Source: an uncultured Candidatus Saccharibacteria bacterium
Lineage (GTDB): Bacteria; Patescibacteriota; Minisyncoccia; UBA6257; GWB1-50-10
DNA length: 50,887 bases
Direction: 5' to 3'
Assembly (NCBI GenBank): GCA_964525595.1
Contig: CAZGHF010000002.1
Coordinates: 1-50,887, forward strand
The translations under genes were made by a program, and so were the position numbers. Of the stretch, positions 1-33,750 are shown piece by piece; the first letter of the stretch is position 1, and the number at the start of each line of letters is the position of its first letter. The notes beneath the pieces are model-generated. The model ran no database searches and was not told the origin of the DNA. It saw only the letters and a program-made list of their open reading frames with translations.

Positions 1-1095
1 TTCCTGAAAGATTCAATGAACTGCCAGAATTGTTTTGCCTCGGCCAACTTGCGAGGCAAGAAATACTGCATTTTTAACAAACCTTACACCAAAGAGGATT
101 ATTTTAAAGAAATCGCCAAGTGGGATTTGGGTTCTTATAAGACATATCAAGAAGTTAAGAAGATGGCCGAGGAGCATTGGCAGAAGTTTCCGCCCAAGCC
201 TGTTATGGATGATTTTTCTGCCAATTGCAGCGGCAGCCACCTTTTCCAATCCAAGAATTGTAAGGAAAGCTATGAAGTAGTCGGCGCCGAAGATTCCAAG
301 TTCATTTTTGATTGCGACTCCAGCGTAAAGGATTGCTACGACATTTCCAATTGGGGCAACAACCTCACTCTTTCTTATGAAGGCTGTGTCATAGGAGAAA
401 ATTGTTCCAATATGAAATTTTGCCAGGAGGCCGGCATAAATTTTTATAATGCTGAATATTGCAAACTCTCAACCGGTGGTTCAAATCATGTCGGTTGTGT
501 ATCTGTCAGGAAAGGTGAGTATGTAATTTTCAACAAGCGAGACTCGGAGGACGAGTCTCACAAAATGCGGGAGAAAATCATCGGACACATGAATGACGTG
601 CCTTACATTGATAGAAAAGGAGTGGAGTATAGGTATGGTGAATTTTTCCCGATAGAATTTTCTTCTTTTGCTTATAATGAAACGGTGGCGAATGATTTCT
701 TCCCTCTTTCCCGGCCGGAAATCGAAGAAAAGGGCTATCGCTGGTGCGAGCCGGAGGAGCGGACGCACGCGGTAACAATGGCGCCTGATAAGTTGCCGGA
801 CCACATCAAAGACGCAAAAGACGATATTTTGAAGGAAATAATCGGCTGTAAAAAATGCGGCCGGGGATTTAAGATAATTCAGATGGAGCTTAATTTCCTG
901 CGGGAGAGAAATTTGCCTCTGCCCCGGCAATGCCCTTTCTGCCGTATTGATGAGAAGTTCAGGCAATGGATTAAAAACCTGCGGGTTGTAGAAAGAACCT
1001 GCAGTAAGTGCAGCGCTGAATTTGAAACTAATTATCCCAAAGAGGAAGTCGATTATATTCTTTGTAAAAAATGTTATCTTAAAGAAGTAATCTAG
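1..1095 (+). CDS. Cys-rich multi-zinc-ribbon protein, paralog 1 (5' end lies outside the window)
   Basis: The frame is open from base 1 (FLKDSMNCQNCF...). This aligns with the mid-protein motif WFLKNCxxCxxCFGC of the downstream paralogs. It shares the C-terminal CxxC..F.II..E.NF....LPLPR.CP.CR ribbon and the terminal CSKC...YILCKKCY ribbon. Confidence 0.8.
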   Translation, partial: FLKDSMNCQNCFASANLRGKKYCIFNKPYTKEDYFKEIAKWDLGSYKTYQEVKKMAEEHWQKFPPKPVMDDFSANCSGSHLFQSKNCKESYEVVGAEDSKFIFDCDSSVKDCYDISNWGNNLTLSYEGCVIGENCSNMKFCQEAGINFYNAEYCKLSTGGSNHVGCVSVRKGEYVIFNKRDSEDESHKMREKIIGHMNDVPYIDRKGVEYRYGEFFPIEFSSFAYNETVANDFFPLSRPEIEEKGYRWCEPEERTHAVTMAPDKLPDHIKDAKDDILKEIIGCKKCGRGFKIIQMELNFLRERNLPLPRQCPFCRIDEKFRQWIKNLRVVERTCSKCSAEFETNYPKEEVDYILCKKCYLKEVI

Positions 1096-1098
1096 ATT

Positions 1099-1128
1099 TA
1101 CGTATTTTAATACGTATTTAATTACGTA
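1099..1128. promoter_or_regulatory. Three TACGTA palindromic hexamers at exact 12-bp phasing (1099, 1111, 1123) in the gap before paralog 2
   Basis: Read directly: TTTACGTATTTTAATACGTATTTAATTACGTAATTAAA. The same TACGTA-N6-TACGTA arrangement recurs at 30032/30044. Confidence 0.3.
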
Positions 1129-1136
1129 ATTAAATC

Positions 1137-2909
1137 ATGAAAATAAAAGGCGCAAATAAAAAAGAAGAATCAAGAAATTGCCGGAGCTGTAAACAGGATT
1201 TTATAATAGAACCCGACGACTTCGGTTTTTATGAGAAAATACAAGTTCCGCCGCCAACCTGGTGTCCGGATTGTCGTCAGCAGAGGAGATATGCCTGGCG
1301 GAACGAAAGAGTGCTCTACCGTCGCAAGTGTGATTTATGCAGCAAGAGCACGGTAACTATTTATTCGCCGAACAAGCCCTACAAAGTGTACTGTCCGCCC
1401 TGTTGGTGGAGCGATAATTGGGATCCGATGGAATACGGCCGCGATTTTGACGAATCAAAACCTTTTTTGGAACAATGGCATGAATTGCAGCTTGTGGCGC
1501 CGCGGATAGCGCTTCTTACCAAAAACAGCGTAAATTCCGAATACACCAATCACTCGTCCGATAATAAGGACGCCTATCTTTGCTTCGGTACTTTTGATTC
1601 GGAAAATGCCATGTATTGCACCAATGTTTGGGGCGGCAAAACAAAAGATTGTATGGATTGTTACCGCATTCTAGGGGGTAATGAGCTTCTTTATGGATGT
1701 ATCGATTCGGAAAGGTGCTATCGCTGTCAATACGGTATTCGGCTCAGAGATTGCACCGATTGCTTTTATTGTTTTGACTGCCGCGGTTCTTCCAACTGTT
1801 TTTTGTCGTCAAATCTTCGTAACAAGCAATATCACATTTTGAACAAACCCCACAAGAAGGAAGAGTATCTTAAAAAAATTGAAGAGTTTAACTTGGATTC
1901 CAGCAAAGCAAGAAAAGAGCTTTATGATAAGTGGCTGGATTTAATGGAGAAAGAGAGTCTTCACCGTTTCGCCGTTATTGAAAAATCAACAGAGGTTACC
2001 GGCAATAATATTTTGAATTCAAAGCGGGCTTATCATGCTTTTGACGGTAATGACCTGGAAGACGTTAAATATTCCGCCCTCTCGGTGGAAATGAAAGATT
2101 CAATGGATTTTTATCACGTCGGTTTCGGTTGCGAACTCATATACGAAGGGCACGGTATGATTTACAACTATCACGCTCTTTTCAATCATTTGAGTTATCA
2201 CAACAGAGATATCACTTATTGTGACGGCTGTCAGGATAGCGAAAATCTTTTTGGCTGTGTAAGCGTGAAAAACAAAAAATACTGCATTTTAAATAAACAA
2301 TACAGTGAGGAAGAGTATAAAAAATTGAAAGATAAAATAATCCGGCACATGAATGAAATGCCTTATGTCGACAAAGTTGGTAATGAGTTCAGGTATGGCG
2401 AGTTTTTCCCGGGCACCCTCTCACCGATTGGCTACAACGAAACCCAAGGGATGGTTTATATGCCCCTAAGCAAAGATGAAGCCCTTAAAAAAGGGTATAG
2501 GTGGGAAAATGAAGAATTCGGAACTTTCGGAAAAGAAACAGTGGAGCCGGAAAATATCCCGGATAATATAGGCGATGTTGAGGAGGGTTTTCTGAAAGAA
2601 GTTTTCCGTTGCGAAGACTGCTCTATAAATTACAACGTAATTGGCCGGGAATTATCTTTTTATAAAAAAGAAAATATCCCTTTTCCCCGGCTTTGTCCGA
2701 ATTGCCGGTATAAGTGTCGTATTGCTCTGCGCCTGCCGCGCAAACTCTGGCACCGTCAGTGTATGTGCGATTATAAAGTCCATAAAAATACCACGGAACA
2801 TTCCCATCACCCAACTGGCAGATGCCTCAACGAATTCGAAACCTCTTATTCTCCGGAGAGAAAAGAAGTCGTCTACTGCGAGGAGTGCTACAACGCAGAG
2901 GTAGTTTAA
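1137..2909 (+). CDS. Cys-rich multi-zinc-ribbon protein, paralog 2 (long C-terminal ribbon subtype)
   Basis: 590-aa ORF. N-terminal CRSC..F.I.PDDFGFYEK..VPPP.WCPDCRQQRR, then CDLC...YKVYCPPCWWSDNWDP. Central CxxC-rich repeats (CMDC, CYRC, CTDCFYCFDC, CDGC). C-terminal CEDC...FYKK...PFPRLCPNCR and CMCD..H..H..C.NEFETSY...YCEECY. Confidence 0.85.
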   Translation: MKIKGANKKEESRNCRSCKQDFIIEPDDFGFYEKIQVPPPTWCPDCRQQRRYAWRNERVLYRRKCDLCSKSTVTIYSPNKPYKVYCPPCWWSDNWDPMEYGRDFDESKPFLEQWHELQLVAPRIALLTKNSVNSEYTNHSSDNKDAYLCFGTFDSENAMYCTNVWGGKTKDCMDCYRILGGNELLYGCIDSERCYRCQYGIRLRDCTDCFYCFDCRGSSNCFLSSNLRNKQYHILNKPHKKEEYLKKIEEFNLDSSKARKELYDKWLDLMEKESLHRFAVIEKSTEVTGNNILNSKRAYHAFDGNDLEDVKYSALSVEMKDSMDFYHVGFGCELIYEGHGMIYNYHALFNHLSYHNRDITYCDGCQDSENLFGCVSVKNKKYCILNKQYSEEEYKKLKDKIIRHMNEMPYVDKVGNEFRYGEFFPGTLSPIGYNETQGMVYMPLSKDEALKKGYRWENEEFGTFGKETVEPENIPDNIGDVEEGFLKEVFRCEDCSINYNVIGRELSFYKKENIPFPRLCPNCRYKCRIALRLPRKLWHRQCMCDYKVHKNTTEHSHHPTGRCLNEFETSYSPERKEVVYCEECYNAEVV

Positions 2910-2994
2910 GCATCGGCTCAAGCTCGGTTTTGGGTCGCAAACATATTTGAGTCAAGAAAGAACTTCTTGGTAAGAAGGAATTTTTTCTGATAGA

Positions 2995-4473
2995 ATGGCT
3001 AAATACGTTCTTATGAGGGTTAAAATTACTCGAAAAGTTGATAAAAAGACGGCGCCGGTATTCGTTTTAAAAGAAAAGCAGAAACCGGATAATCACCCCT
3101 TTTTTAAGCTTATTTCCAAGGAGGATCAGGCCAACCTTCGGGCTTTTGCCGGCCATGCCCACCGGGAGGGCGGTTATGAGCACGTGGTGTTGCTCTCCGG
3201 CGGCAGGCATGCCCTCATTTTCGGAATTCCAAAAGAATTTAATCACCGGAAGGCAATCAAGCTTATGCGCCGGGTGGTAGCAGTTGCAAGAAAAGAGAAA
3301 GTAAGCAAAATCGCCGTTAACCTGGATGATTTCAATGTATCAAGATTGAATCTCGATAATTTTGCGGAAATACTGGCCACTCAACTTGAGATTGCGAATT
3401 TTGAGTTTGTTCAATACAAGGAGAAACCGAAAGACGGGTGGTTTTTTGTAAATGAGACTCAGGTCTACATAAAAGGAAACGCGAGAATTCAGCAAGCTTT
3501 GAATAGAGGAAAAATAATCGGTGAGGAAATAAACCACACCCGGATTCTTTCAAACACGCCGGGCGGCGACATGACCCCTAAGAAACTTGCCGAGGCAGCA
3601 AGGCGAGCCGGTAGGCGAGCCGGGTTTAAGGTTAAGGTTTTGGAGGAGAGCGCGATTCGCAAGCTTAAAATGGGCGGTGTCTTGGGAGTTTCTCAGGGTT
3701 CGGATGAACGACCAAAGTTTGTGATTATGGAATATATGAAAGGTGGGAAGAAAGAAAAACCCGTTGTTTTAGTGGGGAAGGGTGTGACTTTTGACACTGG
3801 CGGTTTAAATTTGAAGTCGAGCGAAGGAATTTATGAGATGCATATGGACATGTCCGGCGGGGCGGCGGTTATTCACACGATGGCGGCTCTTGCCCGTCTT
3901 AAGGTTAAGAAAAACCTCATCGCTCTCGTGCCGGCGGTTGAAAACATGCCCTCCGGCGGCAGTTATCGGCCGGGAGACCTGTTAAAGACGATGTCCGGTA
4001 AAACCATTGAGGTTTTGAATACTGACGCCGAAGGCCGGATAATTCTTGCCGATGCTCTGGAGTACGCCAAGCGTTACAAGCCGCGGCTTGTGATTGACGT
4101 GGCAACTCTAACCGGAGCGGCGATTGTTGCTTTAGGCCCTCGGGCTTCGGCGGTTTTTTCAACTGACGAAAGGTTTACTGAAAAACTGCAAAAAGCAGGG
4201 GAAACGATTGGTGACTTTGTCTGGCCGCTCCCACTTTGGGAAGAGTATGAAGAAGACATTAAAGGAACTTTTGGTGACGTTGCAAATACGGCAACCCAGA
4301 AAAATCGCGGAGTAAGCACCAGTGCGGCATTCCTCTGGCAGTTCATAAAAGGATACAATTGGGTTCACCTCGACATTTCCCCGCGAATGACTGCAGTTAA
4401 ATCGGATAATTTGGCCAAAGGCGCCGCCGGTGCTCCGGTTGCACTCCTTACGCAGTTTTTGAGAAATTTTTAG
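2995..4473 (+). CDS. pepA: Leucyl aminopeptidase (M17 family)
   Basis: M17 signature NTDAEGRIILADAL, plus VGKGVTFDTGG and the metal-ligand region. 492 aa. The start could instead be the ATG at 3013. Confidence 0.9.
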   Translation: MAKYVLMRVKITRKVDKKTAPVFVLKEKQKPDNHPFFKLISKEDQANLRAFAGHAHREGGYEHVVLLSGGRHALIFGIPKEFNHRKAIKLMRRVVAVARKEKVSKIAVNLDDFNVSRLNLDNFAEILATQLEIANFEFVQYKEKPKDGWFFVNETQVYIKGNARIQQALNRGKIIGEEINHTRILSNTPGGDMTPKKLAEAARRAGRRAGFKVKVLEESAIRKLKMGGVLGVSQGSDERPKFVIMEYMKGGKKEKPVVLVGKGVTFDTGGLNLKSSEGIYEMHMDMSGGAAVIHTMAALARLKVKKNLIALVPAVENMPSGGSYRPGDLLKTMSGKTIEVLNTDAEGRIILADALEYAKRYKPRLVIDVATLTGAAIVALGPRASAVFSTDERFTEKLQKAGETIGDFVWPLPLWEEYEEDIKGTFGDVANTATQKNRGVSTSAAFLWQFIKGYNWVHLDISPRMTAVKSDNLAKGAAGAPVALLTQFLRNF

Positions 4474-4477
4474 ATTT

Positions 4478-6199
4478 ATGAACTCAGAAACAAAGCAATG
4501 CCAAAGTTGCAAGCAGAGCTTTGTTATTGAACCGGCTGATTTTGATTTTTACAGGAAAATTTCTGTCCCGCCACCCACATGTTGCCCGCAGTGCCGGATG
4601 CTCCGGCGCTGGATTTGGCGTAACGACAGACGCTTATTCAGAAGAAAAGACGTTGTCTCCGGCAAGGAGATTTTTTCCAATTTTCCACCGCAGGTGAAGG
4701 CAAAAGTTGTAGATATTGAATATTGGAAGTCCGATGCTTGGGATCCGTTGGAATACGGGCGGGACTACGATTTTTCGCGTCCTTTTTTCGAGCAGTTCAA
4801 GGAGCTCTTGTATTCAGTGCCCTGGCCGGCAAAAAGCGTTCAACAAATGGTCAATTCCGACTACTGCGACCAGGCCGGTTATTTCAAAAACTGCTACCTT
4901 TGTTTCAACGGTGATGGAATGGAAGACTCGGCTTATTGTGTGAACGGTTCTTTTTTAAAGAACTGTTTTGACCTGCGGGAGGCCAGTTCAAACGAGCTGT
5001 GTTATGACAGTGTTGTAATCGGTTCCAGCTACAAAACTTTTTTCGCGGTAAGTTCCGAAAATTGCCGCGATTCCTGGTTTCTGAAAAACTGCAGCGGTTG
5101 TACCGACTGTTTCGGCTGTGTGAATTTGAAAAACAAGTCCTATCACATTTGGAATGAACCCCACGCAAAAGAGGAATATTTCCGGAAATTAAAAGAATTT
5201 AATCTCGGTTCTTACGAATCACTGGTTAAATTAAGAAAGAAAGCAGAAGAGTTTCGGTCCGGATTCCCGGTTAAGTACAGGTACGGCGTAAGAAACGTTA
5301 ATTCTTCCGGGGAACTTGTTTTTGACGCCAAGGACGCAAAAGATTGCTATTCGATTTTGGATGTCGAAAATCTTCGCTACTGCCAATTCGTTTACCGGAA
5401 GGTAGCCGATTGTTACGACTATTCGGTTTGGGGCAATGCTTCCTCCGAAATGTACGAGTGTATGACTTGCGGTGACCAGTCCAGTCGGATGAAATTTTGC
5501 TGGGAGGTTTGGCCCGGATGCAATGACGTTGAATATTCAATGTTTTGCCGGTCCTCCTCTGACCTTTTCGGCTGTGTCAGTTTGAAGAAGAAACAGTATT
5601 GTATCTTTAATAAGCCCTATTCAAAAGAAGAATATATCACTTTAAGGGAAAAAATTGTGAGACAGATGACCGAGAGCGGGGAGTACGGCGAGTTTTTTCC
5701 GATAAAGCTTTCTCCCTTTGCTTATAACGAAACGATTTGTCAGGATTATTTTCCTTTGTCCGCCGAAGCAGCGGCAAAAAAGGCGGGTTACCGCTGGCGA
5801 GAACCGGAACTGCGGGAGTTTGAGACGACAATGGATGCGAAGGAATTGCCTGATAATATCCGGGATGTCGAAGAAGACGTTTTGAAGGAAATAATCAAGT
5901 GCTCGTCCTGCGGCCGGGCTTACCGCATTATTGAAATGGAATTCAATTTTTTAAAACAGATGAACGTTCCTCTGCCGCGATTGTGTGTTGATTGCCGCTA
6001 CAAGAAGAGGTTTGAGCACATCAATCCACCTAAATTTTGGCATCGGCAGTGTATGTGCGATTATAAGGCGTATGATAATTTCTCGAAGCACGAATGGCAT
6101 CCGGAAGGCAGGTGCCCTAACGAGTTTGAAACGAGCTATGCGCCAGAGAGAAAAGAAATTATTTATTGTGAGGAATGTTATCAAAAGGAATTAATATAA
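4478..6199 (+). CDS. Cys-rich multi-zinc-ribbon protein, paralog 3 (long C-terminal subtype)
   Basis: 573 aa with the same N-terminal, central and C-terminal motif order as paralog 2. It starts 4 nt after the pepA stop. Confidence 0.85.
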   Translation: MNSETKQCQSCKQSFVIEPADFDFYRKISVPPPTCCPQCRMLRRWIWRNDRRLFRRKDVVSGKEIFSNFPPQVKAKVVDIEYWKSDAWDPLEYGRDYDFSRPFFEQFKELLYSVPWPAKSVQQMVNSDYCDQAGYFKNCYLCFNGDGMEDSAYCVNGSFLKNCFDLREASSNELCYDSVVIGSSYKTFFAVSSENCRDSWFLKNCSGCTDCFGCVNLKNKSYHIWNEPHAKEEYFRKLKEFNLGSYESLVKLRKKAEEFRSGFPVKYRYGVRNVNSSGELVFDAKDAKDCYSILDVENLRYCQFVYRKVADCYDYSVWGNASSEMYECMTCGDQSSRMKFCWEVWPGCNDVEYSMFCRSSSDLFGCVSLKKKQYCIFNKPYSKEEYITLREKIVRQMTESGEYGEFFPIKLSPFAYNETICQDYFPLSAEAAAKKAGYRWREPELREFETTMDAKELPDNIRDVEEDVLKEIIKCSSCGRAYRIIEMEFNFLKQMNVPLPRLCVDCRYKKRFEHINPPKFWHRQCMCDYKAYDNFSKHEWHPEGRCPNEFETSYAPERKEIIYCEECYQKELI

Positions 6200-6227
6200 G
6201 TGATTGATAACCAATAACTGGTAACTT

Positions 6228-7913
6228 ATGGCAGTTGAAAACAAAAACACTTCGATAAACTCAGCATCTTCGACTTGCAAACAGTGTAACACCCAATTTG
6301 AAATAACGGCTGATGATTTGGGATTTTACGAGAAAATCGATGTGCCGGCGCCGAGTTTGTGTCCCCGTTGCCGTCAGCAAAGGAGAATTTTATTCCGGAA
6401 TTTTAAAACGCTCTACAAGCGGAAATCCGATAAGTCAGGAAAGTCGGTAGTTTCAATGTATTCTGAGAAAGCTCCCTTTCCGGTGTGGAGCCACGATGAA
6501 TGGTGGGCTGACGACTGGGACGCGAAAGAGTACGGTCGTGACATCGACTTTAACCGTTCTTTTCTTGAGCAATTCAAGGAATTGCAGAATAGCGTTCCTC
6601 ATTACGCGGTTATGAATACCAAAAGCGAAAATTGCGAGTATTCAAACCTGACTTTCAACAGTAAAAATTGCTATTTGGTTTTCGGGTGCGTTGATGATGA
6701 AAATTCTGCGTATGGCCATATTGTCTGGAATTCCAAAGATTGTTTTGACAATCTCTACGTATATAAAGGAGAACTTTGTTACGAGTGCGTTGATTGTCTG
6801 AATTCTTATCGGCTTCTTTATTCGCAGGAATGTGAGGACTGCGCTGATAGTGTTGGGCTCTACGATTGCCGGGGATGTTCAAGCTGTATAGGGTGTGTTG
6901 GCTTGAAACAAAAGTCTTATCATGTTTTTAACGAAAATGTTGGCAAGGAAGGATACGAAAAGTTTCTAAATGAACATCCTCTGCATGACCCTAGGGCAAT
7001 ATCTTTGATTTTGAAGAAACAGCAGGAACTTCGAAAGAAGGTTCCGCAAAGACACTTTTTCGGGTCTCATAATACCGACGTTTCCGGTAATCACATTTAT
7101 AATTCCAGAAATGTTCACTATTCTTTTGATGTGAAAAGCGGCGAGAACTCAAAATACGTTTTCACTCTCAGGAAAGCTATTGATACCTATGACACTTCTT
7201 TTTCTCCTGATTTGGAGTTGTGTTACCAGGTTCTCGCGGGTCAGGGCATGCAGCAATTCTTTTCTCGGAACTGCGCAAATTGTACAAATATTTACCATTC
7301 CGAAGATTGTTTCAGTTCTCACGACATTTTTGGCTGTGTCGGTTTGAAAAGCGGGGAATACTGCATTTTAAACAAACAGTATTCTAAAGAAGACTACAAA
7401 TCTTTGAAATCAAAAATTATTGAGCATATGAAAAATAGCGGAGAGTGGGGAGAACACCACCCCCCGGAACTATCTGCTTTTGCCTACAACGAATCTATCG
7501 TAAATGAATATATGCCTCTTACAAAGAAGAAGGCTCTAGCTCAAGGTTTCCGTTGGGAGGACGACATTCCTGCAACGAGCGGACAAGAAACCATCTCTTA
7601 CGAGGAGCTTCCGGCAAACCCCAAGGGTTATTCCGATGGTTTAACAAAGCATGTTTTGAAGTGCGAAGTTTGCGAAAGAAATTATCGTCTCATTAAAATG
7701 GAGATTGGTTTCTATAAAAAACTCGAACTTCCTCTCCCAAAAGAATGTTTTAATTGCCGGCATCAGAGAAGAATGAACTCAAGAACCCCGCGCGAGCTTT
7801 GGCCGGGGAAGTGCGCAAACTGTGGGACAGAATTCCAAACTTCCTATTTGCCCGAGAGCCAAAAAGAATACAAGATTTTTTGCGAGAAGTGTTATCTTGA
7901 GGAATTAGGATGA
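6228..7913 (+). CDS. Cys-rich multi-zinc-ribbon protein, paralog 4 (short C-terminal subtype)
   Basis: 561 aa with the family motifs CKQC..F.ITADDLGFYEK..VP.P..CPRCRQQRR ... CEVC..NYRLIKMEIGFYKK..LPLPK.CFNCR ... CANCG..FQTSY...FCEKCY. Confidence 0.85.
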   Translation: MAVENKNTSINSASSTCKQCNTQFEITADDLGFYEKIDVPAPSLCPRCRQQRRILFRNFKTLYKRKSDKSGKSVVSMYSEKAPFPVWSHDEWWADDWDAKEYGRDIDFNRSFLEQFKELQNSVPHYAVMNTKSENCEYSNLTFNSKNCYLVFGCVDDENSAYGHIVWNSKDCFDNLYVYKGELCYECVDCLNSYRLLYSQECEDCADSVGLYDCRGCSSCIGCVGLKQKSYHVFNENVGKEGYEKFLNEHPLHDPRAISLILKKQQELRKKVPQRHFFGSHNTDVSGNHIYNSRNVHYSFDVKSGENSKYVFTLRKAIDTYDTSFSPDLELCYQVLAGQGMQQFFSRNCANCTNIYHSEDCFSSHDIFGCVGLKSGEYCILNKQYSKEDYKSLKSKIIEHMKNSGEWGEHHPPELSAFAYNESIVNEYMPLTKKKALAQGFRWEDDIPATSGQETISYEELPANPKGYSDGLTKHVLKCEVCERNYRLIKMEIGFYKKLELPLPKECFNCRHQRRMNSRTPRELWPGKCANCGTEFQTSYLPESQKEYKIFCEKCYLEELG

Positions 7914-9583
7914 ATCAAGTAGAAGCAAAAAACTGCAAACAGTGCGGGAGTCAGTTCGAAGTAACGGCTGACGACTTGGGATTTTACGAGAAAATGGGCG
8001 TGCCGGTACCGGTTCTCTGTCCCGAGTGCCGCTTCAAGAGACGGGCGGTTTTCAGGAATGAGATGCGGCTTTATTCCCGGACTTGTGATTTATGTAAGAG
8101 GTCAACTCTCGCCATGTATCACCCAGATTCGCCTTATAAGGTTTATTGCCGCGATTGCTGGATGTCTGACAAGTGGGATCCTTATGAATACGGCCGGGAG
8201 TATGACCTCAACCGCCCCTTTTTTGAGCAGTTTGCCGAAATGGTTTTAGAGGTGCCGAAAGTCGGAATATTTGCCTCCACCGATATGGGACCGAACATTA
8301 ACAGCGATTGGACTAACTTTGCCGGCGCGAACAAGGATTGTTATTTGGTTTTTAATTCCGGTCCGCGGAACGAAAACTGCGCTTACTCTCGCGGGTTAAT
8401 AGAGAGTCGTGATACTTTTGATGCCTATTTTGGCGACAATGTGGAGCGAGTTTACGAATGTGTGAATGTTCACAAAAGTTCCGGCGTGGTTTGGGGACAG
8501 AATGTTCTGGATTCCATAGATTCTTGGTTTCTTTTAAATTGTACTGATTGTCAGAATTGTTTTGGGTGTGTTAATTTAAGGCATAAACAATACCACTTTT
8601 TTAACGAACTGCTTGACAAAGAAGAATGGCAAAGGCGGGTTGATGAAATTATCGGCAGTTACGAGAAGTTGGAAGAAGTGCGCAAAAAGTTTGACGATTT
8701 CTCGCTCAAGTTTCCGAGGCGGGAAAATAATAACCTGAAAAACACCAACTGCACGGGTGATTATATTTTTGAATCTAAAAACTGCAAAGAGTGTTTTGAA
8801 GCTTCTTTTTCCGAGGATTGCAAATATTTGTTCTCAAATAAGTACACCAAAGATAGTTATGACCTTTTAGGTCATGGTCGTCAGGCAGAAATGATTCTTG
8901 AAGGCATTGCGGTTGGTAGTGGTACACGTATTATCGGCTCTTGGTGGTGCGTTAACGGCCACGATATTGAATATTCAATAGCTCTTCAGGGCGGCGAGTA
9001 TTGTTTCGGTTGTGATAGTTTGAAAAAAGGTAAGTATTCGATTTTGAACAAACGGTATGATGAAGCTAAATACCAAAAAATTCGCAACCACATTGTAAAT
9101 GAATTGAAAGAGAAAGGTTTGTATGGTCTCTATTTTCCGCCTCAAATGGCTTTCTTCGCTTATAACGAAACCATAGCTCAAGACAATCTTCCTTTAACTA
9201 AGGAAGAGGCGATAAAGCAGGGTTTTCGCTGGCAGGATGACTTGCAGATGACGACCGGCAAGGAAACCGTTAAACCGGAGGAAATTTCTGACCACATCAA
9301 AGACGTCTCGGATGATATTTTGAAAGAAACGCTGGCTTGTATTGAATGCGGCAGGAATTACCGGTTTATAAAACCGGAATTGGATTTTTACAAACGAATG
9401 AGTATTCCCATCCCCCGAAAGTGCTTTTACTGCCGCCACACCGATCGTCTCCGCCGCCGCGGACCTTTCAAACTCTTTGCTCGCGAGTGCGCAAAGTGCA
9501 GTAAAGAAATAAAAACCACTTATGCTCTGGAGAGACCGGAGGTGGTTTACTGCGAAGCTTGCTACCAAAACGAAGTTATATAA
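7910..9583 (+). CDS. Cys-rich multi-zinc-ribbon protein, paralog 5 (short C-terminal subtype)
   Basis: 557 aa. Its start overlaps the stop of paralog 4 (ATGA at 7910-7913). Family motifs are present throughout. Confidence 0.85.
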   Translation: MNQVEAKNCKQCGSQFEVTADDLGFYEKMGVPVPVLCPECRFKRRAVFRNEMRLYSRTCDLCKRSTLAMYHPDSPYKVYCRDCWMSDKWDPYEYGREYDLNRPFFEQFAEMVLEVPKVGIFASTDMGPNINSDWTNFAGANKDCYLVFNSGPRNENCAYSRGLIESRDTFDAYFGDNVERVYECVNVHKSSGVVWGQNVLDSIDSWFLLNCTDCQNCFGCVNLRHKQYHFFNELLDKEEWQRRVDEIIGSYEKLEEVRKKFDDFSLKFPRRENNNLKNTNCTGDYIFESKNCKECFEASFSEDCKYLFSNKYTKDSYDLLGHGRQAEMILEGIAVGSGTRIIGSWWCVNGHDIEYSIALQGGEYCFGCDSLKKGKYSILNKRYDEAKYQKIRNHIVNELKEKGLYGLYFPPQMAFFAYNETIAQDNLPLTKEEAIKQGFRWQDDLQMTTGKETVKPEEISDHIKDVSDDILKETLACIECGRNYRFIKPELDFYKRMSIPIPRKCFYCRHTDRLRRRGPFKLFARECAKCSKEIKTTYALERPEVVYCEACYQNEVI

Positions 9584-9632
9584 TGAAAAGTAAGCGAAGT
9601 CCCGCCGAAGCTTTAGCGAAGGCGGACGAAGA

Positions 9633-11396
9633 ATGTTATCAAAGAGAAGTGATATGAGCAAAACTCCACAATTTGATAAAGCGCTAAGGGATTACTATGC
9701 ATCGCTAAAACTGGACGAAAAGGGCGGGCAAGAGCGAAAATGCCGTTTTTCAGGAAACTCATTTTATGTCACTTCAGAAGATATAAGTTTTTACAAAAGA
9801 GTCGGAGAGCCGATGACTACTCTTGAGCCACACGAGCGTCGCCGCGGGCGGTCGGGGTTTATGAATTGTTATAAGCTTTTTAAGAATAAATCTGCAGCGA
9901 CAGACAAAACCATAATTACAATGTACCCGCCGGGGTCGCCGTACAAAATTTACGAGCACGGTTATTGGTACTCGGACAAATGGGATCCCGGAGAATATGA
10001 AAGGAATTACGATCCTCGGAAAAGTTTTTTTGACCAATACGGTGAATTACAGCGGGATGTTCCCCGGCCGAGTTTATTGTCTGACGTGAGTAACGTAAAT
10101 AGCGACTACACTAACAGCAGTAAGAACCTCAAGAATTGTTACTTAACCTTTGACCAGAACAAAGGGGAAAATTTGTACTACCATCAGTGCTGTGAAGATG
10201 ACAAAAATTGCATTGAGTGCTGGGCGCTTGATTTTTGCGAGACATGCTATGGGTGCAAGGTGGGTCACCACCTTTTCAGATGTTTTTACTGCGAACAGTG
10301 CTCTAACTGTTTGGATAGTTATTTCCTTTATGACTGCAGGGGATGCAGTCATTGTTTTATGTCTTCAAACTTGAGGAATAAGAAGTATTACTTTAGGAAC
10401 GAGTTTGCCGGCAAGGAGGAATATGAAAAACGGATGCGTGAGGTGTATCTTGGTAGCAACCGCAAGAAGTTGGTGCTTGAGGAGGAATATGAAGAGTTGA
10501 AGAAAAAAGCGATAAGAAAGCCGGACTGGAATGAAAAATCATCAAATTCTTCGGGGAATTTTATAAAAAATTCCAAAAATATAAAAGATGGTTTCTGGGT
10601 TGTTAATTCGGAAAATATTGTGCACTCCGAAGGGATTTACAATTCGAAGGATTCTTATGATGCGTTAGGTGTATCAGATTCAGAATTGTGCTACGCCATA
10701 GCAAGTCTTTGGGGAGGCAAGAACTATCTCGTAAAGTTTTCCGCACACGTTGATAATTGCCGTGAAGTTGAGTACTCAGAATACCTTAAGAATTGCACAA
10801 ATTGCCTCGGGTGCATTGGTTTGAAAAACAAAAAGTTTCACATTTTCAATAAGGCATATTCTGAAGACGATTACTACAAGAAAATCGAAGAGATAAAAAC
10901 AAAAATGCTTGCAGTCAAAGAATACGGTGAGTTTTTCCCACTGAACCTTTTCCCGTTTTCTTACAAAGTCTCGGATGTTACAAGTTATAGAGGATATAGG
11001 GATTATGAAAATGCCGAGAAGTATGGATATGATATGAGTGACATGCCTGAGACCGCTAGTTCGGTAGAGGGAGAGGTTTTGCGTGCTGATGAATTGCCGG
11101 ATGATATTAAGGATGTAGGTAATGATATTTTGGAGAAAACGATTCTTGACGAAAAAAATAATAAGAAGTTTCGCTATATTAAACCTGAGCTGGAGTTTTA
11201 CAGAACGCATGGCATTGCACCGCCAAGAGAGCATCCGTCAATCCGAATGGATAGATGGCGCGACAGTTTTGAGGTTGTCACAAGAACATTCAGACATTCT
11301 TGCCTTAGCTGCGGCGTTGAAGTTGAGACAATGTATCCTTCTGATGATGACGTAAGGGTGTATTGTGAAAAATGTTACCAAGCCAAGGTGGTGTAG
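9633..11396 (+). CDS. Cys-rich family paralog 6, divergent copy with several zinc-ligand cysteines lost
   Basis: The family scaffold is conserved (SFYVTSEDISFYKR, YKIYEHGYWYSDKWDP, NCLGCIGLKNKKFHIFNKAYSEDDY, FRYIKPELEFYR). However the N-terminal CxxC/CPxC/CxLC/YCxxC positions and the penultimate ribbon lack Cys. An alternative start is the ATG at 9654. Confidence 0.75.
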   Translation: MLSKRSDMSKTPQFDKALRDYYASLKLDEKGGQERKCRFSGNSFYVTSEDISFYKRVGEPMTTLEPHERRRGRSGFMNCYKLFKNKSAATDKTIITMYPPGSPYKIYEHGYWYSDKWDPGEYERNYDPRKSFFDQYGELQRDVPRPSLLSDVSNVNSDYTNSSKNLKNCYLTFDQNKGENLYYHQCCEDDKNCIECWALDFCETCYGCKVGHHLFRCFYCEQCSNCLDSYFLYDCRGCSHCFMSSNLRNKKYYFRNEFAGKEEYEKRMREVYLGSNRKKLVLEEEYEELKKKAIRKPDWNEKSSNSSGNFIKNSKNIKDGFWVVNSENIVHSEGIYNSKDSYDALGVSDSELCYAIASLWGGKNYLVKFSAHVDNCREVEYSEYLKNCTNCLGCIGLKNKKFHIFNKAYSEDDYYKKIEEIKTKMLAVKEYGEFFPLNLFPFSYKVSDVTSYRGYRDYENAEKYGYDMSDMPETASSVEGEVLRADELPDDIKDVGNDILEKTILDEKNNKKFRYIKPELEFYRTHGIAPPREHPSIRMDRWRDSFEVVTRTFRHSCLSCGVEVETMYPSDDDVRVYCEKCYQAKVV

Positions 11397-11421
11397 TTAA
11401 GTACATCACCCACTTAAGAAC

Positions 11422-13122
11422 ATGAATCGAGAAACAAAACAATGCCAAAACTGTAAGCGGGATTTCACGATAGAGCCGGAGGATTTCAAGTTTTACGAAA
11501 AACTAAAAGTCCCGCCGCCGACTTTTTGCCCGGAATGCCGGTTTCAGCGGCGGCTTATGTTCAGAAATGAACGCACTTTTTACAAGCGCGATTGCGAGCT
11601 TTGCGGAAAAAGCGTTGTTGCTCTTTTTGCTCCGGAACGGGGGAGACGAGTTTACTGCCAGCCTTGCTGGTGGTCGGATAATTGGGACGGCACCGATTAT
11701 GGTATGGATTACGACCCCACCCGGAATTTTTTCGAGCAACTTAGAGAGTTAACTCTCAAAACTCCCTACATGTCGCTTATTACGGATTATTCCACGCTTG
11801 TAAACAGCGAGTACACCAACCACGTCGGTTCACTTAAAAATTGCTACCTCGTATTTAACGCCGATTATTGCGAAAATCTTTATTACGGCGCAGTCGTTAT
11901 TCACGCCAAAGATTCGATGGATGTTCTTTGTTTTGGTGAATCAGAGCTTTGTTATGAAGTTATTATGACTGGAAAATCCTATCAGACATTTTTTTCGGAG
12001 GACTGTAATAGCTGTACGGACGTATATTTTTCCAAGGCCTTGAGCGGTTGTGACCACTGTTTTGGCTGTATTAATTTACGTAACAAAAGTTACTATATTT
12101 TCAACAAAAAGTATTCTAAGGAAGATTACGAAAAAGAGATAAAAAAATACAAACTTGATTCTTTTTCTTCCGTAGAAGAACTAAAAAGGAAAGCCCGGGA
12201 TTTTTGGAATAAATTTCCCAATAAGTTTATGCATGGTACTCATAATTCAAATGTTTCGGGGGATTATATCGGCGCATCTAAAAACGCCCATTATATGTAT
12301 CAGGTAAGGCACGTGGAAGATGGTAGATACTGCCAGTTTATTACTCTTCCTCCGGCCAAAGACGTTTACGACCTTACGGAATGGGGAGCCGGGGCCGAGC
12401 TTGTTTGCGATAGCGTTACCGTGGGCGGCAACTCCCAGAATATCCAGTTTTGTTTTGCTTCTTGGTCGGGAGCGGTGAATACCCAGTATTGTATGTTTAC
12501 ACCTTCCTGTCAGAACCTTTTCGGTTGTGTAAATTTGCACAAGAAACAGTACTGCATCTTGAACAAGCAATACAGTAAAAATGAATATGAAACGTTGCGG
12601 AAGAAGATTTTGGCTGACATGGAAAGAAATCCTTACGTTGATAAAGTTGGGAGAGTATGGAAATATGGGGAGTTTTTACCCTATAACCTGAGCCCCTTTG
12701 CCTATAACGAAACCCATGCGGCTCAATTCTGGCCGCTTAACGAAAACCAAGTATCGGAGAAAGGATGGGAATGGCAAGAGCCTGTGCGTAGTTCACATCA
12801 GGTAACGATTCAACCTGATAAAATTCCGGACAGTATTAACGATGTCGATGAATCAATATTGCGGGAGGTTTTGAGTTGCGCTGACTGCAATAAAGCCTTT
12901 AAGTTAGTAAAAGGAGGATACGATATTCTAAAAAGATTCGGTTTTCCAATCCCGCGAAAGTGCCCGAACTGCCGGCATATGGAGAGAATGTCGCGCGTTA
13001 ACCCGCCGCGTTTGTGGGGGAGGGAATGCGCAAAATGTGGAAAAGACATTCAAACATCATATTCCCCGGACAGGAAGGAAATTGTGTATTGCGAAGAATG
13101 TTATCAGAAGGAAGTAATATGA
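11422..13122 (+). CDS. Cys-rich multi-zinc-ribbon protein, paralog 7 (short C-terminal subtype)
   Basis: 566 aa with the full motif set (CQNCKRDFTIEPEDFKFYEKLKVPPPTFCPECRFQRR ... CADC..AFKL ... CPNCR ... CAKCG..IQTSY..YCEECY). Confidence 0.85.
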   Translation: MNRETKQCQNCKRDFTIEPEDFKFYEKLKVPPPTFCPECRFQRRLMFRNERTFYKRDCELCGKSVVALFAPERGRRVYCQPCWWSDNWDGTDYGMDYDPTRNFFEQLRELTLKTPYMSLITDYSTLVNSEYTNHVGSLKNCYLVFNADYCENLYYGAVVIHAKDSMDVLCFGESELCYEVIMTGKSYQTFFSEDCNSCTDVYFSKALSGCDHCFGCINLRNKSYYIFNKKYSKEDYEKEIKKYKLDSFSSVEELKRKARDFWNKFPNKFMHGTHNSNVSGDYIGASKNAHYMYQVRHVEDGRYCQFITLPPAKDVYDLTEWGAGAELVCDSVTVGGNSQNIQFCFASWSGAVNTQYCMFTPSCQNLFGCVNLHKKQYCILNKQYSKNEYETLRKKILADMERNPYVDKVGRVWKYGEFLPYNLSPFAYNETHAAQFWPLNENQVSEKGWEWQEPVRSSHQVTIQPDKIPDSINDVDESILREVLSCADCNKAFKLVKGGYDILKRFGFPIPRKCPNCRHMERMSRVNPPRLWGRECAKCGKDIQTSYSPDRKEIVYCEECYQKEVI

Positions 13123-14876
13123 CAGAAACCAAAACCTGCCAAAACTGTAAACAGTCATTCACGATTGAACCCGAAGATTTCAACTTCTACAAAAAGATTG
13201 ATGTCCCGGCACCGACTTTTTGCTCCGATTGCCGGATGCAAAGGCGGATGCTGTGGCGCAACGAGAGGATTTTGCATAGGAGGAAATCAAGTCTTTCGGG
13301 TAAAGATTTGATTAGTCAATATCCCAAAGAAACTTCTTTCCCGGTCTACGGTGTAAGAGAATTTTATTCCCGCGACTGGGACCCGCCTTCCTTGAAATAT
13401 GATTCAAACCGGAGTTTTCTCGCTCAATTCCAAAGCTTATTATTGAAGACGCCGCGTTGTGCTCTTCTCACGGATATTCAGTCTCTTGATAATGGCAGTA
13501 TTTACCAGAACTCGGCCAGTCGGAACAAAAATTGCTATATGGTCAGCGCTTCGGGAGACAACGAAGATTGCCTTTATAGCAACAACCTCGATTACGCAAA
13601 AAACTCCATTGATTGTCTTTGGTGCCGGAGAGTTGAACATGCTTATGAATGTGTGGATTCAATTGATTGTGCCAGAACTTTCTTTTGTGACGAGTGCAGG
13701 CAATGCGTTGATTCTTGGTTTTTATACAATTGCCGGAACTGTCTTAATTGTTTCGGTTGCGTCGGTCTTCGGAGCAAATCATATTGTCTATGGAATAAAC
13801 AGCTGACTAAAGAAGAATACGAGTCACAGGTCGGAAAAATACTGGAAAGTTTGATTTTAGAACGAGTCCTTGAATTTCAATCAAAGCTCAAAAATATGGC
13901 ACTCGCTTTTCCGAGGAAGTACGCTCATATAGATCCTAAAAGCGCTCCGACTTGCACAGGTGATTACATTATCGATTCTCAGAACGTGTTTCAGGGTTTT
14001 ACGGTTCACGAGAGCCAGAACGTTCGGTATTGTTCCAAGCTCATAGCCGGCAAAGAGTGTCTGGATGTTAACGATTGGGGAGATCCGGCCGAGTTGTGTT
14101 ATGAAAGCATCACCGTCGGTAAGGGCGCCTATAAAGTTTTCTTTTCCTCAAATTGCTGGCCGGAATGCCGAGAGCTTCAGTATTGCGAATCCTGCTCAAG
14201 CTCTCACCACCTCTTTGGCTGCGTGGGATTGAAAAACGCATCGTATTGTATTTTGAACAAACAATATACAGAAGAAGAGTACAATCGGATTGTTCCGGAA
14301 ATAATCGACGAAATGAAGCGGCGCAAGGAATACGGCGAATTCTTCCCGAAAGAATTTTCTCCCTTTCCTTACAACGAAAGCATTGCCCAGGAGAATTTTC
14401 CTTTAACCAGAAAAGAAGCGGTTGAAAAAGGTTTTATCTGGCGGGAGAGCGACAGAAGGGATTATGAGATAACGATGAAAACTATGGATATTTCCCGGAG
14501 TATAAAACAGGTAGATGACTCTATGTTGCGGGAAATTATAGGTTGCGTCCACGGCGGCAAGTGCAATCACGAGTGTGCAACTGCTTTTAAAATTGTATCG
14601 GAGGAACTCAAGTTTTATAGGCGGTTCGGCTTACCCTTACCTCAACTTTGCTTTAATTGCCGGCACGCGGCGAGATTCAACCTGCGGAATCTGCCTAAAG
14701 TTTGGAAAGACTCATGTAAATGCGCCGGTAAAAAATCGGAAAACGGGATTTATCAAAACACCACCGAACACTTCCACGAAGCGGGGAAGTGTCCCAATGA
14801 ATTTGAGACATCATACTCTCCGGACAAAAAAGAAATAGTTTATTGCGGACAATGCTACAACGCTGAAATAATTTAA
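13119..14876 (+). CDS. Cys-rich multi-zinc-ribbon protein, paralog 8 (long C-terminal subtype)
   Basis: The family N-terminus MTETKTCQNCKQSFTIEPEDFNFY begins at the ATG at 13119, which overlaps the paralog 7 stop (ATGA). The 13014 start in the ORF track would add 35 non-homologous residues inside the upstream gene. Confidence 0.8.
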   Translation: MTETKTCQNCKQSFTIEPEDFNFYKKIDVPAPTFCSDCRMQRRMLWRNERILHRRKSSLSGKDLISQYPKETSFPVYGVREFYSRDWDPPSLKYDSNRSFLAQFQSLLLKTPRCALLTDIQSLDNGSIYQNSASRNKNCYMVSASGDNEDCLYSNNLDYAKNSIDCLWCRRVEHAYECVDSIDCARTFFCDECRQCVDSWFLYNCRNCLNCFGCVGLRSKSYCLWNKQLTKEEYESQVGKILESLILERVLEFQSKLKNMALAFPRKYAHIDPKSAPTCTGDYIIDSQNVFQGFTVHESQNVRYCSKLIAGKECLDVNDWGDPAELCYESITVGKGAYKVFFSSNCWPECRELQYCESCSSSHHLFGCVGLKNASYCILNKQYTEEEYNRIVPEIIDEMKRRKEYGEFFPKEFSPFPYNESIAQENFPLTRKEAVEKGFIWRESDRRDYEITMKTMDISRSIKQVDDSMLREIIGCVHGGKCNHECATAFKIVSEELKFYRRFGLPLPQLCFNCRHAARFNLRNLPKVWKDSCKCAGKKSENGIYQNTTEHFHEAGKCPNEFETSYSPDKKEIVYCGQCYNAEII

Positions 14877-15170
14877 ATGACTTTCAAGATTTACAATAAG
14901 AACTACAACATTCGGGATTTAGTGAGAAAGCTGGGATACAAGCCGTTGGGGTATACGCCGAAAGGTGAGTTAAACTGCGTGCGGCCCCTGGGCGGCGATT
15001 ATCCGCGCTTCCATATTTACCTGAAGAAGGATAAAGATATCATTACTTTCAATATCCACCTTGACCAAAAGAAGCCGATTTACAAGGGTGTAACCGCCCA
15101 CAGCGGCGACTATGACGGCGAGGTGGTTGAAGGCGAGGTTCAGCGAATTAAGGATATAATTTTTAGATGA
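14877..15170 (+). CDS. Hypothetical 97-aa protein, translationally abutting the last paralog
   Basis: The ORF starts directly after the paralog 8 stop (TAAATG). I recognise no family motif. Confidence 0.5.
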   Translation: MTFKIYNKNYNIRDLVRKLGYKPLGYTPKGELNCVRPLGGDYPRFHIYLKKDKDIITFNIHLDQKKPIYKGVTAHSGDYDGEVVEGEVQRIKDIIFR

Positions 15171-33737: not shown

Positions 33738-33750
33738 TTTATAGTTATCC

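Follow-up and report, generated by a model that had tools for sequence, protein, structure and literature searches.

The window, by which we mean the whole stretch of 50,887 nucleotides that was analysed, opens with eight plus-strand paralogs (p1 to p8) of one zinc-finger protein of about 570 aa, which lie in one operon and take up positions 1-14876. The features of this region are as follows.

1..1095, + strand: p1, paralog, 5' end cut by the window edge
1137..2909, + strand: p2, 590 aa; four terminal zinc fingers intact; long C-terminal subtype with extra Cys/His insert
2995..4473, + strand: pepA, M17 leucyl aminopeptidase, inside the array and interrupting the paralogs
4478..6199, + strand: p3, 573 aa; ligands of the second finger (ZnF2) lost; long C-terminal subtype
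6228..7913, + strand: p4, 561 aa; ZnF2 lost; stop overlaps the p5 start via ATGA
7910..9583, + strand: p5, 557 aa; four fingers intact
9583..9657, + strand: mini-ORF of 24 codons (MKSKRSPAEALAKADEECYQREVI*), overlapping the p6 ATG via ATGA
9654..11396, + strand: p6, 580 aa if begun at 9654, the probable start, and 587 aa if begun at 9633
11422..13122, + strand: p7, 566 aa; four fingers intact; the copy used for the structure model
13119..14876, + strand: p8, 585 aa when begun at the ATG at 13119, which overlaps the end of p7 via ATGA; long C-terminal subtype; ZnF2 lost
14877..15170, + strand: 97-aa ORF, beginning right after the p8 stop (TAAATG junction at 14874)

The original prediction, made from the sequence alone, had described a tandem run of eight same-strand ORFs sharing one architecture. 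All eight are present at the starts it gave, with pairwise identities of 30-43% over the common architecture, and the junctions that it had read at 7910, 13119 and 14874 are all correct. Some details change. The eight paralogs do lie on one strand, but the run is broken by pepA, a passenger gene unrelated to the paralogs that is found within the array in a few related lineages only (the present one, AMOR_Bin_147 and a Jorgensenbacteria MAG). Furthermore, p6 had been started at 9633, and its true start is likely the ATG at 9654. The mini-ORF in front of it, whose tail copies the C-terminus of a paralog-family protein, is not present in the sister strain L005; it is a relic or a 74-nt indel specific to the strain.

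A complete p1 of 567 aa, with four of four terminal zinc sites intact, is found in the sister contig L004; there it opens the array and comes straight after cutA. The same contig places a unit of a DUF8128 gene and an ATPase gene directly upstream of the window start in the present lineage. No ATPase gene was found in the window itself, and because the cluster lies just upstream of its edge, the original prediction could not have seen it. Downstream of the array the window continues with housekeeping genes; aminoacyl-tRNA synthetases and GreA are among the neighbours, and mreB-mreC-pbp2 follow the array.

The protein is internally duplicated. Each terminus carries a basic double treble-clef module (zf_Tbcl plus zf_Tbcl_2 type), and between them lies an acidic core in which a Cys-ladder repeat module occurs in two homologous versions; a conserved 'YGEFFP...YNET' segment comes after it. 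The N- and C-terminal finger modules are homologous to each other (hhalign E 4e-25), as are core modules A and B (E 1e-29). The isoelectric points are 8-9.6 for the ends and 5.1-6.0 for the core. The four C4 sites, each with two CxxC pairs some 17-24 residues apart, are ZnF1 (C8/C11/C36/C39), ZnF2 (C58/C61/C79/C82), ZnF3 (C486/C489/C514/C517) and ZnF4 (C536/C539/C557/C560); as zinc sites they are predicted from sequence, and among 195 members they are conserved in 97%, 59%, 87% and 96%, respectively. The degenerate copy p6 has lost the Cys ligands of ZnF1, ZnF2 and ZnF3 and keeps ZnF4 alone, a pattern also seen in orthologues elsewhere. The earlier count of at least 10 CxxC pairs per copy is only approximate, as non-overlapping counts are 8-12 in the full-length copies and p6 lacks three of its four terminal sites. 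The division into two C-terminal subtypes holds, with the long Cys/His insert in p2, p3 and p8 and the short form in p1 and p4-p7. So does the absence of a signal peptide or TM helix, there being no 19-residue window that is sufficiently hydrophobic.

In the core, the Cys ladder has a period of 12 residues that shortens to 9. Ser, Ala, Val or Leu freely take the place of its cysteines, as is expected of packing positions, and only C213 and C369 are more than 95% conserved. Each protein has 26-39 Cys (4.4-6.7% of residues), and aromatic residues, Asn, Asp or Gly occupy most of the invariant positions. Invariant Arg residues occur in the finger modules at both ends, and the extreme C-terminus (...YCExCYxxEV[IV]) is strongly conserved. 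An AF2 model of p7 (pLDDT 85, pTM 0.87) has short strands every ~12 residues in the repeat modules, which are its weakest region (pLDDT 59-68).

As the original prediction had said, the family cannot be assigned to a characterised protein, since only its small terminal fingers match Pfam or NCBIfam. The N-terminal finger of p5 passes the gathering cut-off of zf_Tbcl (25.3 vs 24 bits) and the C-terminal finger of p7 that of zf_Tbcl_2 (37.6 vs 27 bits); on these profiles the remaining paralogs reach 17-21 bits, slightly under the cut-off, and TIGR04272 on p7 is marginally under it as well (35.0 vs 36). The four terminal fingers are of the two types found in zf_Tbcl (PF13451), zf_Tbcl_2 (PF23477) and TIGR04272 proteins. 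The known proteins of this kind, however, are single domains of 40-80 aa without an assigned function, whereas here two finger pairs flank a core of ~400 aa and the genes form ancient multi-paralog arrays. Small Methanosarcina mazei proteins with the same finger type bind zinc by ICP-MS (PMC12704099). The core found no match in Pfam, NCBIfam or, for the four paralogs tested, PADLOC; the sole match was phrog_15341, a PHROG family without assigned function, to core repeat A of p2 and p8.

Several known folds resemble parts of the protein. With beta-solenoids (left-handed beta-helix acyltransferases and insect antifreeze proteins, PF02420) the core shares the 12-residue strand period and the internal Cys ladder, and a 'faint' precomputed match to PF02420 exists on orthologues. 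Foldseek of the p7 model against PDB and BFVD gave no significant match (best E 0.057, TM-scores at most 0.17, rmsd 13-21 A). The top neighbours were LbH/beta-helix proteins, and a left-handed beta-helix was rejected on these values (TM at most 0.17, E at least 0.05) together with the lack of Hexapep or AFP Pfam matches in the window proteins. Unlike in the Cys-rich antifreeze helices, disulfides are not expected here because the proteins are cytoplasmic. The last finger pair has a weak similarity to the LIM domains of CRP/MLP (PDB 1ctl E 0.002-0.011, Pfam LIM E 0.015), but the Pfam LIM score stays below the cut-off (16.0 vs 22.9 bits, p5 only), the spacer between the fingers is ~18 residues and not 2, and the ligands are all Cys. 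A (poly)ferredoxin binding 4Fe-4S was rejected as well, there being no Fer4-type match and the CxxCxxC runs of the core not being kept between paralogs. No PADLOC model of a known anti-phage defence component matched the four paralogs tested; the neighbouring ATPases weakly match the PADLOC HerA and mad8 models.

A profile search of the kind suggested with the original prediction matched all eight copies at E<1e-10 and returned thousands of homologues, so that the array is real and far beyond chance. At a threshold of E<=1e-30 the family comprises 2,313 clusters at 50% identity; phage and viral collections are essentially without it. The copies are neither artefacts nor pseudogenes, two outcomes that the original prediction had allowed for: no two copies share more than 82% identity at the DNA level, and this solely within short motifs, and sister-strain contigs carry every covered copy intact, with a pN/pS of ~0.18. 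While the paralogs are 30-43% identical to one another, each has its own one-to-one orthologue in a distant Patescibacteria genome at 48-80% identity. Among 250 arrayed family genes of other genomes, 230 are closer to a gene of another genome than to any in the array they belong to, and paralogs of one locus are never more than 60% identical. These comparisons strongly support the view, put forward before by eye, that the paralogs are an old, maintained expansion, that is, an ancient and fixed set. The family of soluble proteins is Patescibacteria-wide; in each genome some 8-10 non-redundant subfamilies make up a fixed set, which is under purifying selection and usually arrayed on one strand. 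Among the functions originally considered, a multi-subunit assembly or binding of variable specificity is favoured. Diversified immunity or host-interaction factors are disfavoured, since the set shows purifying selection and neither turnover nor recent duplication.

What is new is a reciprocal gene-neighbourhood link between the paralog arrays and a split unit that resembles a type IV coupling protein (T4CP). The order of the unit is a DUF8128 gene, a short ATPase of the TrwB/VirD4/HerA type, often CutA1, the array, and often a long ATPase paralog, which carries the same zf_Tbcl_2 finger as the paralog family and a disordered tail. In the forward direction, 30 of 81 non-redundant loci anchored on the family carry an ATPase, at a median distance of 391 bp and often on both sides, and ATPase and family genes share a strand in 43 of 44 cases. 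For the reverse direction, loci were anchored on the ATPase alone and taken from a different collection; family genes occur in 57 of these 80 loci. Where at least 3 kb of downstream sequence was available, a family gene starts within 2.5 kb downstream in 33 of 43 (77%), and the other 10 have no downstream family gene. The link persists although the order and content of the arrays are fully shuffled.

On the neighbouring ATPases, the Pfam models TrwB_AAD_bind, T4SS-DNA_transf, TraG-D_C and HerA/DUF87 all score above their cut-offs. Between lineages the short ATPase keeps 68-90% identity; this conservation, typical of housekeeping genes, points to a core function. The CxxC...CxxC finger is found in 16 of 17 long ATPases; where scored, it matched zf_Tbcl_2 with E 1.4e-14. 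The DUF8128 protein has two N-terminal TM helices and a soluble domain, and in phrog_5156 it is fused to the ATPase; the label 'DUF8128' is a precomputed annotation that our local Pfam search did not reproduce. In having T4CP-type ATPases with a 2-TM partner beside the array, the locus resembles VirD4/TrwB/TraD complexes. The paralogs, on the other hand, resemble no known adaptor, relaxosome protein or effector in sequence or in fold, as searched in Pfam, NCBIfam, PADLOC and PHROGs, by sequence against PDB, and with Foldseek. A zinc-binding adaptor of a T4CP does have a precedent in DotN of the Legionella DotL complex.

Tentatively, and with somewhat less than even confidence, we propose from the gene neighbourhood and the one small domain in common that the paralogs serve this ATPase machine as non-redundant subunits, either adaptors or clients. 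They would act in the cytoplasm on a membrane-anchored hexameric ATPase. The two basic finger modules may be the ends that bind, their target being either nucleic acid or the ATPase with its partners, and the rigid acidic repeat core could serve as a spacer or scaffold. Within a heteromeric assembly the subfamilies would then differ in specificity or position, with p6-type members, having lost three of four zinc sites, as putative structural subunits.

Patescibacteria carry about two VirD4-like T4CP genes per genome, almost never near virB4 (only 148 of 5,713), and their exaptation 'cannot be ruled out' (PMC12102498). Exaptation of these 'orphan' homologues might have been for a core cellular task, in translocation or assembly, in which the paralog family is used. 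A more far-reaching version is possible, and we regard it as doubtful: the family, the DUF8128/short ATPase pair, the long finger-bearing ATPase and CutA1 would together form an unrecognised membrane-associated machine, Paceibacteria-wide and exapted from a conjugation coupling protein, in which the 8-10 paralogs are a heteromeric adaptor or cargo-recognition set for a core task such as the handling or translocation of macromolecules at the membrane of these ultra-small bacteria, which depend on a host. The link merges two uncharacterised things into one testable system and is a first functional lead for both. It bears on the point left open in the literature (PMC12102498), and the system could show what the ATPases were exapted for and any tie to the epibiotic lifestyle. 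A large part of bacterial diversity belongs to the Patescibacteria (CPR), which have genomes of ~0.6-1 Mb and lineage-specific genes that are mostly functionally unassigned; of such a genome this family, with thousands of sequence clusters and a core without significant structural neighbours in PDB or BFVD, occupies 1-2% as a fixed set of about ten.

The ATPase neighbourhood could instead be historical synteny, as conserved synteny can persist without function in slowly rearranging small genomes, and the paralogs could be stand-alone housekeeping binders of nucleic acid (RNA, ribosome or DNA) with different targets. Some family genes are located away from any ATPase, as in the arrangement RluA (pseudouridine synthase) - family - L19, which recurs in 12 loci, and in the window the array neighbours aminoacyl-tRNA synthetases and GreA. 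The basic finger modules with their invariant Arg would suit such a role, as would the strong purifying selection and class-wide conservation, and in one source a member goes by the name 'Zn ribbon nucleic-acid-binding protein'. We nevertheless consider this unlikely. The ATPase link is reciprocal and outlasts the shuffling of the arrays, whereas pepA, MreB, RluA and L19 vary by lineage; the finger is common to the family and the long ATPase, the bulk of the protein is acidic, and beyond generic zinc ribbons no known RNA- or DNA-binding family is matched.

Substrate arrays beside secretion ATPases are known from T7SSb (essC-linked effector arrays) and T4SS (effector islands), and the paralogs could likewise be cargo that the coupling-protein-like ATPases pass to a type IV secretion channel and into the host cell of the epibiont. 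The layout resembles that of essC-linked modules, in that soluble paralogs without signal peptides or TM helices are arrayed behind a secretion-type ATPase and on its strand, and the conserved extreme C-terminus could be a recognition signal. We hold this to be improbable, as the paralogs evolve in the opposite way to effectors: the essC-linked arrays are hypervariable and strain-specific, and here ancient subfamilies are fixed, without recent duplication, under purifying selection, with orthologues 50-80% identical across lineages that probably have different hosts. The compact zinc-stabilised folds suggested by the p7 model suit unfolding-dependent export poorly, the family is essentially missing from phage and viral collections, and virB4 is rarely near the T4CP genes, as given above.

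Two further readings are very improbable. Storage of zinc or another divalent metal, or tolerance together with CutA1 ('divalent ion tolerance'), which lies between ATPase and array in many loci, would fit the cysteine-rich proteins with up to four C4 sites each, but metallothionein-like stores are small, with 15-30% Cys and few aromatics, and the paralogs (557-590 aa) have far less Cys but many aromatic residues at invariant positions; core Cys are freely exchanged, the p6 subfamily is conserved despite three lost zinc sites, and a buffer has no need for ten ancient non-redundant paralogs. A cytoskeletal polymer of solenoid-like cores in the manner of bactofilins, working with the MreB/MreC/PBP2 elongation machinery encoded nearby, would draw on the periodic strands of the model, its beta-helix neighbours (non-significant), the genes after the array in the window, and the 13 loci in which MreB is at most about 1 kb away from family genes or from the long ATPase, but this adjacency varies by lineage and is mostly with the long ATPase rather than the family, the Foldseek TM-scores are as low as stated, and no bactofilin or other cytoskeletal family match was found.

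The 97-aa ORF behind p8 has no match in any family library searched. Its homologues lie 7-11 bp from paralog-family genes in two other lineages (67% identity in L057 and 55% in L011), and it is possibly a small accessory protein.

An ORF listing returned the eight same-strand ORFs of the original prediction (the paralogs p1 to p8), coordinates included, together with the ATGA overlaps at 7910 and 13119 and the TAAATG junction at 14874. In a MAFFT alignment the eight proteins have a single architecture at pairwise identities of 30-43%, and the two C-terminal subtypes that had been described are seen there as well. The claim of at least ten CxxC pairs per protein did not hold for every copy; the non-overlapping count is 8-12. 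Family proteins are hydrophilic with an overall pI near neutral and, as predicted, have neither a TM helix nor a signal peptide. The gene p1, which is cut by the window edge, is complete on the sister-strain contig L004 (99% nucleotide identity), where it encodes 567 aa and opens the array. The array region contains the following:

1-14876, forward strand: p1 to p8, the eight paralogs
2995-4473: pepA, an M17 leucyl aminopeptidase gene that ends 4 nt before p3 and splits the array
14877-15170: an ORF of 97 aa that begins right after the stop codon of p8

We rejected pepA as a functional partner, since it is embedded in the array in three related lineages only (7 of 87 loci, redundant ones included), namely that of the window and two further ones (L002/AMOR_Bin_147 and L017/Jorgensenbacteria); we see it as a probable passenger gene. 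For the 97-aa ORF we found no family match in Pfam, NCBIfam, PADLOC or PHROGs. Two other lineages have homologues of it at a distance of 7-11 bp from family genes (L057:3743-4045 with 67% identity and L011:2685-2975 with 55%), and its product may be a small accessory protein.

At the junction of p5 and p6 there is a mini-ORF of 24 codons (9583-9657), whose end, EECYQREVI*, copies the C-terminus of the family and which has an ATGA overlap with the ATG at 9654. The sister strain L005 does not have these 74 nt; its p5 ends with ...CEGCYQREVI* and overlaps p6. Because of this structure, the start of p6 is most likely at 9654, and the 74 nt look like a strain-level indel from recombination between the 3' ends of paralogs. 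Furthermore, p1 of the window carries five substitutions relative to its allele L004:8865-9959, all inside a ten-residue stretch of the best-conserved motif ("NKRDSEDESHKMREK" vs "NKRYSEEEFKKLREK"; family consensus NKxYSxEEY), which may be local relaxation, a recombination patch or a sequencing error in the window copy.

We wanted to know whether the array could be an assembly artefact or the product of a recent duplication. Both can be ruled out, as DNA repeats between the copies are only 60-82% identical and confined to short, most conserved motifs, and the same family genes are found in three independent assemblies. Neither are the copies pseudogenes: every reading frame is intact, and the family genes differ from those of the sister strains by 35 synonymous and 26 non-synonymous substitutions (pN/pS of about 0.18).

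Next, we looked at the anatomy of the proteins. Pfam and NCBIfam recognise the small terminal fingers only, as zf_Tbcl (PF13451) and zf_Tbcl_2 (PF23477 / TIGR04272, "CxxC-x17-CxxC"), with scores that reach the gathering cut-off in p5 and p7 and stay just under it in the other paralogs. Profile-profile comparison revealed two internal homologies: the double-finger module at the N-terminus (p7 residues 3-83) pairs with the one at the C-terminus (481-561; E 4e-25), and core module A (128-243) pairs with core module B (279-396; E 1e-29). The architecture is thus internally duplicated, in the order finger pair, repeat, repeat, finger pair. Of the four terminal C4 sites, ZnF1 is intact in 97% of 195 aligned members, ZnF2 in 59%, ZnF3 in 87% and ZnF4 in 96%; among the window paralogs, p3, p4, p6 and p8 have lost ZnF2, and ZnF4 is the sole finger left in p6. 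The CxxC-x17-CxxC type of finger binds zinc in small proteins of Methanosarcina mazei, as determined by ICP-MS (PMC12704099), and the paralogs presumably bind zinc as well. With a pI of 8-9.6 the finger modules are basic, in contrast to the acidic core (pI 5.1-6.0).

Cysteines in the core form a ladder (141/153/165/177, then 186/195/198/207/210/213/216/225, with the same pattern in module B) and are freely replaced by Ser, Ala, Val or Leu among the paralogs. Judging by this sequence pattern, they behave as interior packing positions of a repeat solenoid and not as discrete metal sites, with C195/C198/C210/C213 as a conceivable further metal site. An AlphaFold2 model built from a 65-sequence alignment (pLDDT 85, pTM 0.87) predicts short strands about every 12 residues in the repeat modules, which are its weakest parts (pLDDT 59-68). 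We were not able to find any known fold for the core: Foldseek gave no significant match in the PDB, where left-handed beta-helix enzymes came closest (E of at least 0.057, TM of at most 0.17), and in the BFVD it returned isolated zinc-ribbon domains only. Sequence and profile searches of the PDB gave weak, sub-threshold LIM-like matches on the last finger only. One p6-like member with degenerate fingers, P0256 (731 aa, one cluster), carries a GNAT acetyltransferase domain at its N-terminus (Pfam E 3e-8) and may be either a real fusion or an artefact of gene calling.

As domains, the fingers are members of zf_Tbcl and zf_Tbcl_2. The whole protein could not be assigned to any characterised family, just as had been supposed: all memberships that we tested (LbH, LIM, ferredoxin, metallothionein, defence components, known T4CP adaptors and effectors) failed. 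We rejected a defence system, as no PADLOC model matched any of the four paralogs compared. Within a partial coverage of the literature, by which a prior description is possible, the proteins are new both as a family and as a gene cluster.

The family is ancient, large and, going by the named matches, confined to Patescibacteria. A word-indexed search with p7 saturated at over 6,500 matches. Those listed by name are almost exclusively from Patescibacteria, mostly Parcubacteria/Paceibacteria lineages (Brenner-, Jorgensen-, Staskawicz-, Sung-, Yanofsky-, Giovannoni-, Lipton-, Nomura- and Portnoybacteria), and every one is annotated as "hypothetical"; one match labelled Nanoarchaeota and one locus labelled Gammaproteobacteria are probable mislabels of binned genomes. 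By exhaustive profile search, the number of clusters at 50% identity is 5,584 for E<=1e-3 and 2,313 for E<=1e-30. A phage or mobile origin was ruled out, since tblastn of p2 found no match in 50,697 deposited phage genomes and IMG/VR (2.9 million contigs) gave one marginal match, at a contig end. Among the PHROGs, phrog_15341, of unknown function, weakly matches core repeat A (p2 residues 148-231, E 3.8e-7; p8 150-225, E 1.2e-4).

Orthologues of p7 are 50-74% identical, well over any pair of paralogs. A ten-gene array on a 621-kb Patescibacteria contig maps one-to-one onto the window paralogs (p1 71%, p4 80%, p2 64%, p7 64%, p5 57%, p3 50%, p6 48%) and has additional subfamilies missing from the window array. 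Distance-based clustering of 195 members gave no clean subfamilies, and members were assigned by their best reference instead. In 87 family-anchored loci we counted from 1 to 10 copies within +/-10 kb, always on a single strand, and several genomes have at least 9-10 copies over several loci. For 250 arrayed genes, the best identity to a paralog of the same locus has a median of 42% and a maximum of 60%, while the best match in another genome has a median of 63% and beats the own array in 230 of the 250. The paralogs therefore make up a fixed, ancient and non-redundant set without birth-and-death turnover, and this set is under purifying selection. The old, maintained expansion that had been proposed instead of a recent duplication is thus borne out by the low identity between copies, the intact frames, the pN/pS and the closer orthologues.

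We then clustered all non-family ORFs at 81 non-redundant family-anchored loci. The standout neighbour is a P-loop ATPase that matches TrwB_AAD_bind, T4SS-DNA_transf, TraG-D_C and HerA/DUF87 over the Pfam cut-offs; it occurs at 30 of the loci, shares the strand of the family genes in 43 of 44 cases and lies a median of 391 bp away from them, often on both sides. It exists in two paralogous forms. The short form (about 490 aa) is 68-90% identical across lineages, a conservation far above the expectation for a conjugation gene. The long form (about 610-870 aa) carries an extra zf_Tbcl_2 finger (E 1.4e-14), with the CxxC pair in 16 of 17 sequences, and a long, disordered tail that terminates in a conserved KEVPEEVLRKVLE-like motif. 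Other recurrent neighbours are CutA1 and a protein of about 460 aa, DUF8128 by precomputed annotation, with two N-terminal TM helices and a soluble domain; pepA, MreB, RluA and L19 are lineage-specific ones. The genes for DUF8128 and the short ATPase are adjacent almost everywhere (L004:4358-7815 and many of the loci L088-L167), and in the phage family phrog_5156 the two are fused, which reproduces the classical layout of a membrane-anchored coupling protein. A literature search of incomplete coverage gave no paper under the name "DUF8128".

The window itself encodes no ATPase of the T4CP-like type; immediately upstream of its start, L004 shows the order DUF8128, a 145-aa TM protein, short ATPase, CutA1 and p1. 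In the reverse test, 80 loci were retrieved by the short ATPase alone from a different collection (JGI metagenomes), and 57 of them have family genes. Where at least 3 kb of downstream sequence is available, a family gene starts within 2.5 kb in 33 of 43 loci (77%). The order, all on the same strand, is DUF8128, short ATPase, optionally CutA, one to six or more family genes and optionally the long ATPase. Between lineages the arrays are wholly shuffled in their internal order and content, and any of the eight subfamilies can come first after the ATPase, while the attachment to the ATPase persists. In summary, there is a reciprocal gene linkage between the family and a split coupling-protein-like ATPase unit bearing the same finger, and this specific context extends the main interpretation of the original prediction, which is supported.

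In the 2,918 Patescibacteria genomes of a 2025 survey there are 5,713 VirD4-like T4CP homologues, and no more than 148 of these homologues lie near virB4; its authors state that an exaptation "cannot be ruled out", and the neighbours of the t4cp genes are not described there (PMC12102498).

Given the linkage, we tentatively consider the paralogs to be cytoplasmic adaptor or client subunits of the ATPase machine. By genomic analogy, they might resemble a T4CP-associated adaptor or cargo set; Legionella DotN and T7SSb are what we take to be parallels. It is unlikely that they are stand-alone nucleic-acid-binding housekeeping factors, which would suit the basic fingers and the site next to RluA and L19 but not the robust link with the ATPase. 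Somewhat more doubtful still is that they are translocated effectors; the gene layout speaks for this, whereas the way in which the family evolved, its compact fold stabilised by zinc and the distance to virB4 speak against it. Metal buffering together with CutA1 and a solenoid cytoskeleton working with MreB are both very improbable. As adaptors or clients of the ATPase, the paralogs would use the basic fingers as binding ends and the acidic repeat core as a rigid scaffold; the p6 type, with its degenerate fingers, would be a structural subunit.

Elsewhere in the window, metK (27777-28832) is directly preceded by a SAM (S-box) riboswitch (27626-27737, 57 bits, E 1e-10), an ordinary arrangement. 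Between about 30000 and 41500 there is a low-GC island (0.37 vs about 0.44), probably a restriction or defence island, with the following genes:

34189-35823: DndB-like gene
36581-38221: fusion of a Vsr endonuclease and a Dcm cytosine methylase
38223-40418: protein with two GHKL ATPase domains

A single 488-aa ORF on the reverse strand (32286-33752) joins a LexA DNA-binding domain and Peptidase_S24 with an N6/N4 DNA methyltransferase; it is unusual for an SOS-type repressor to be fused with a methylase.
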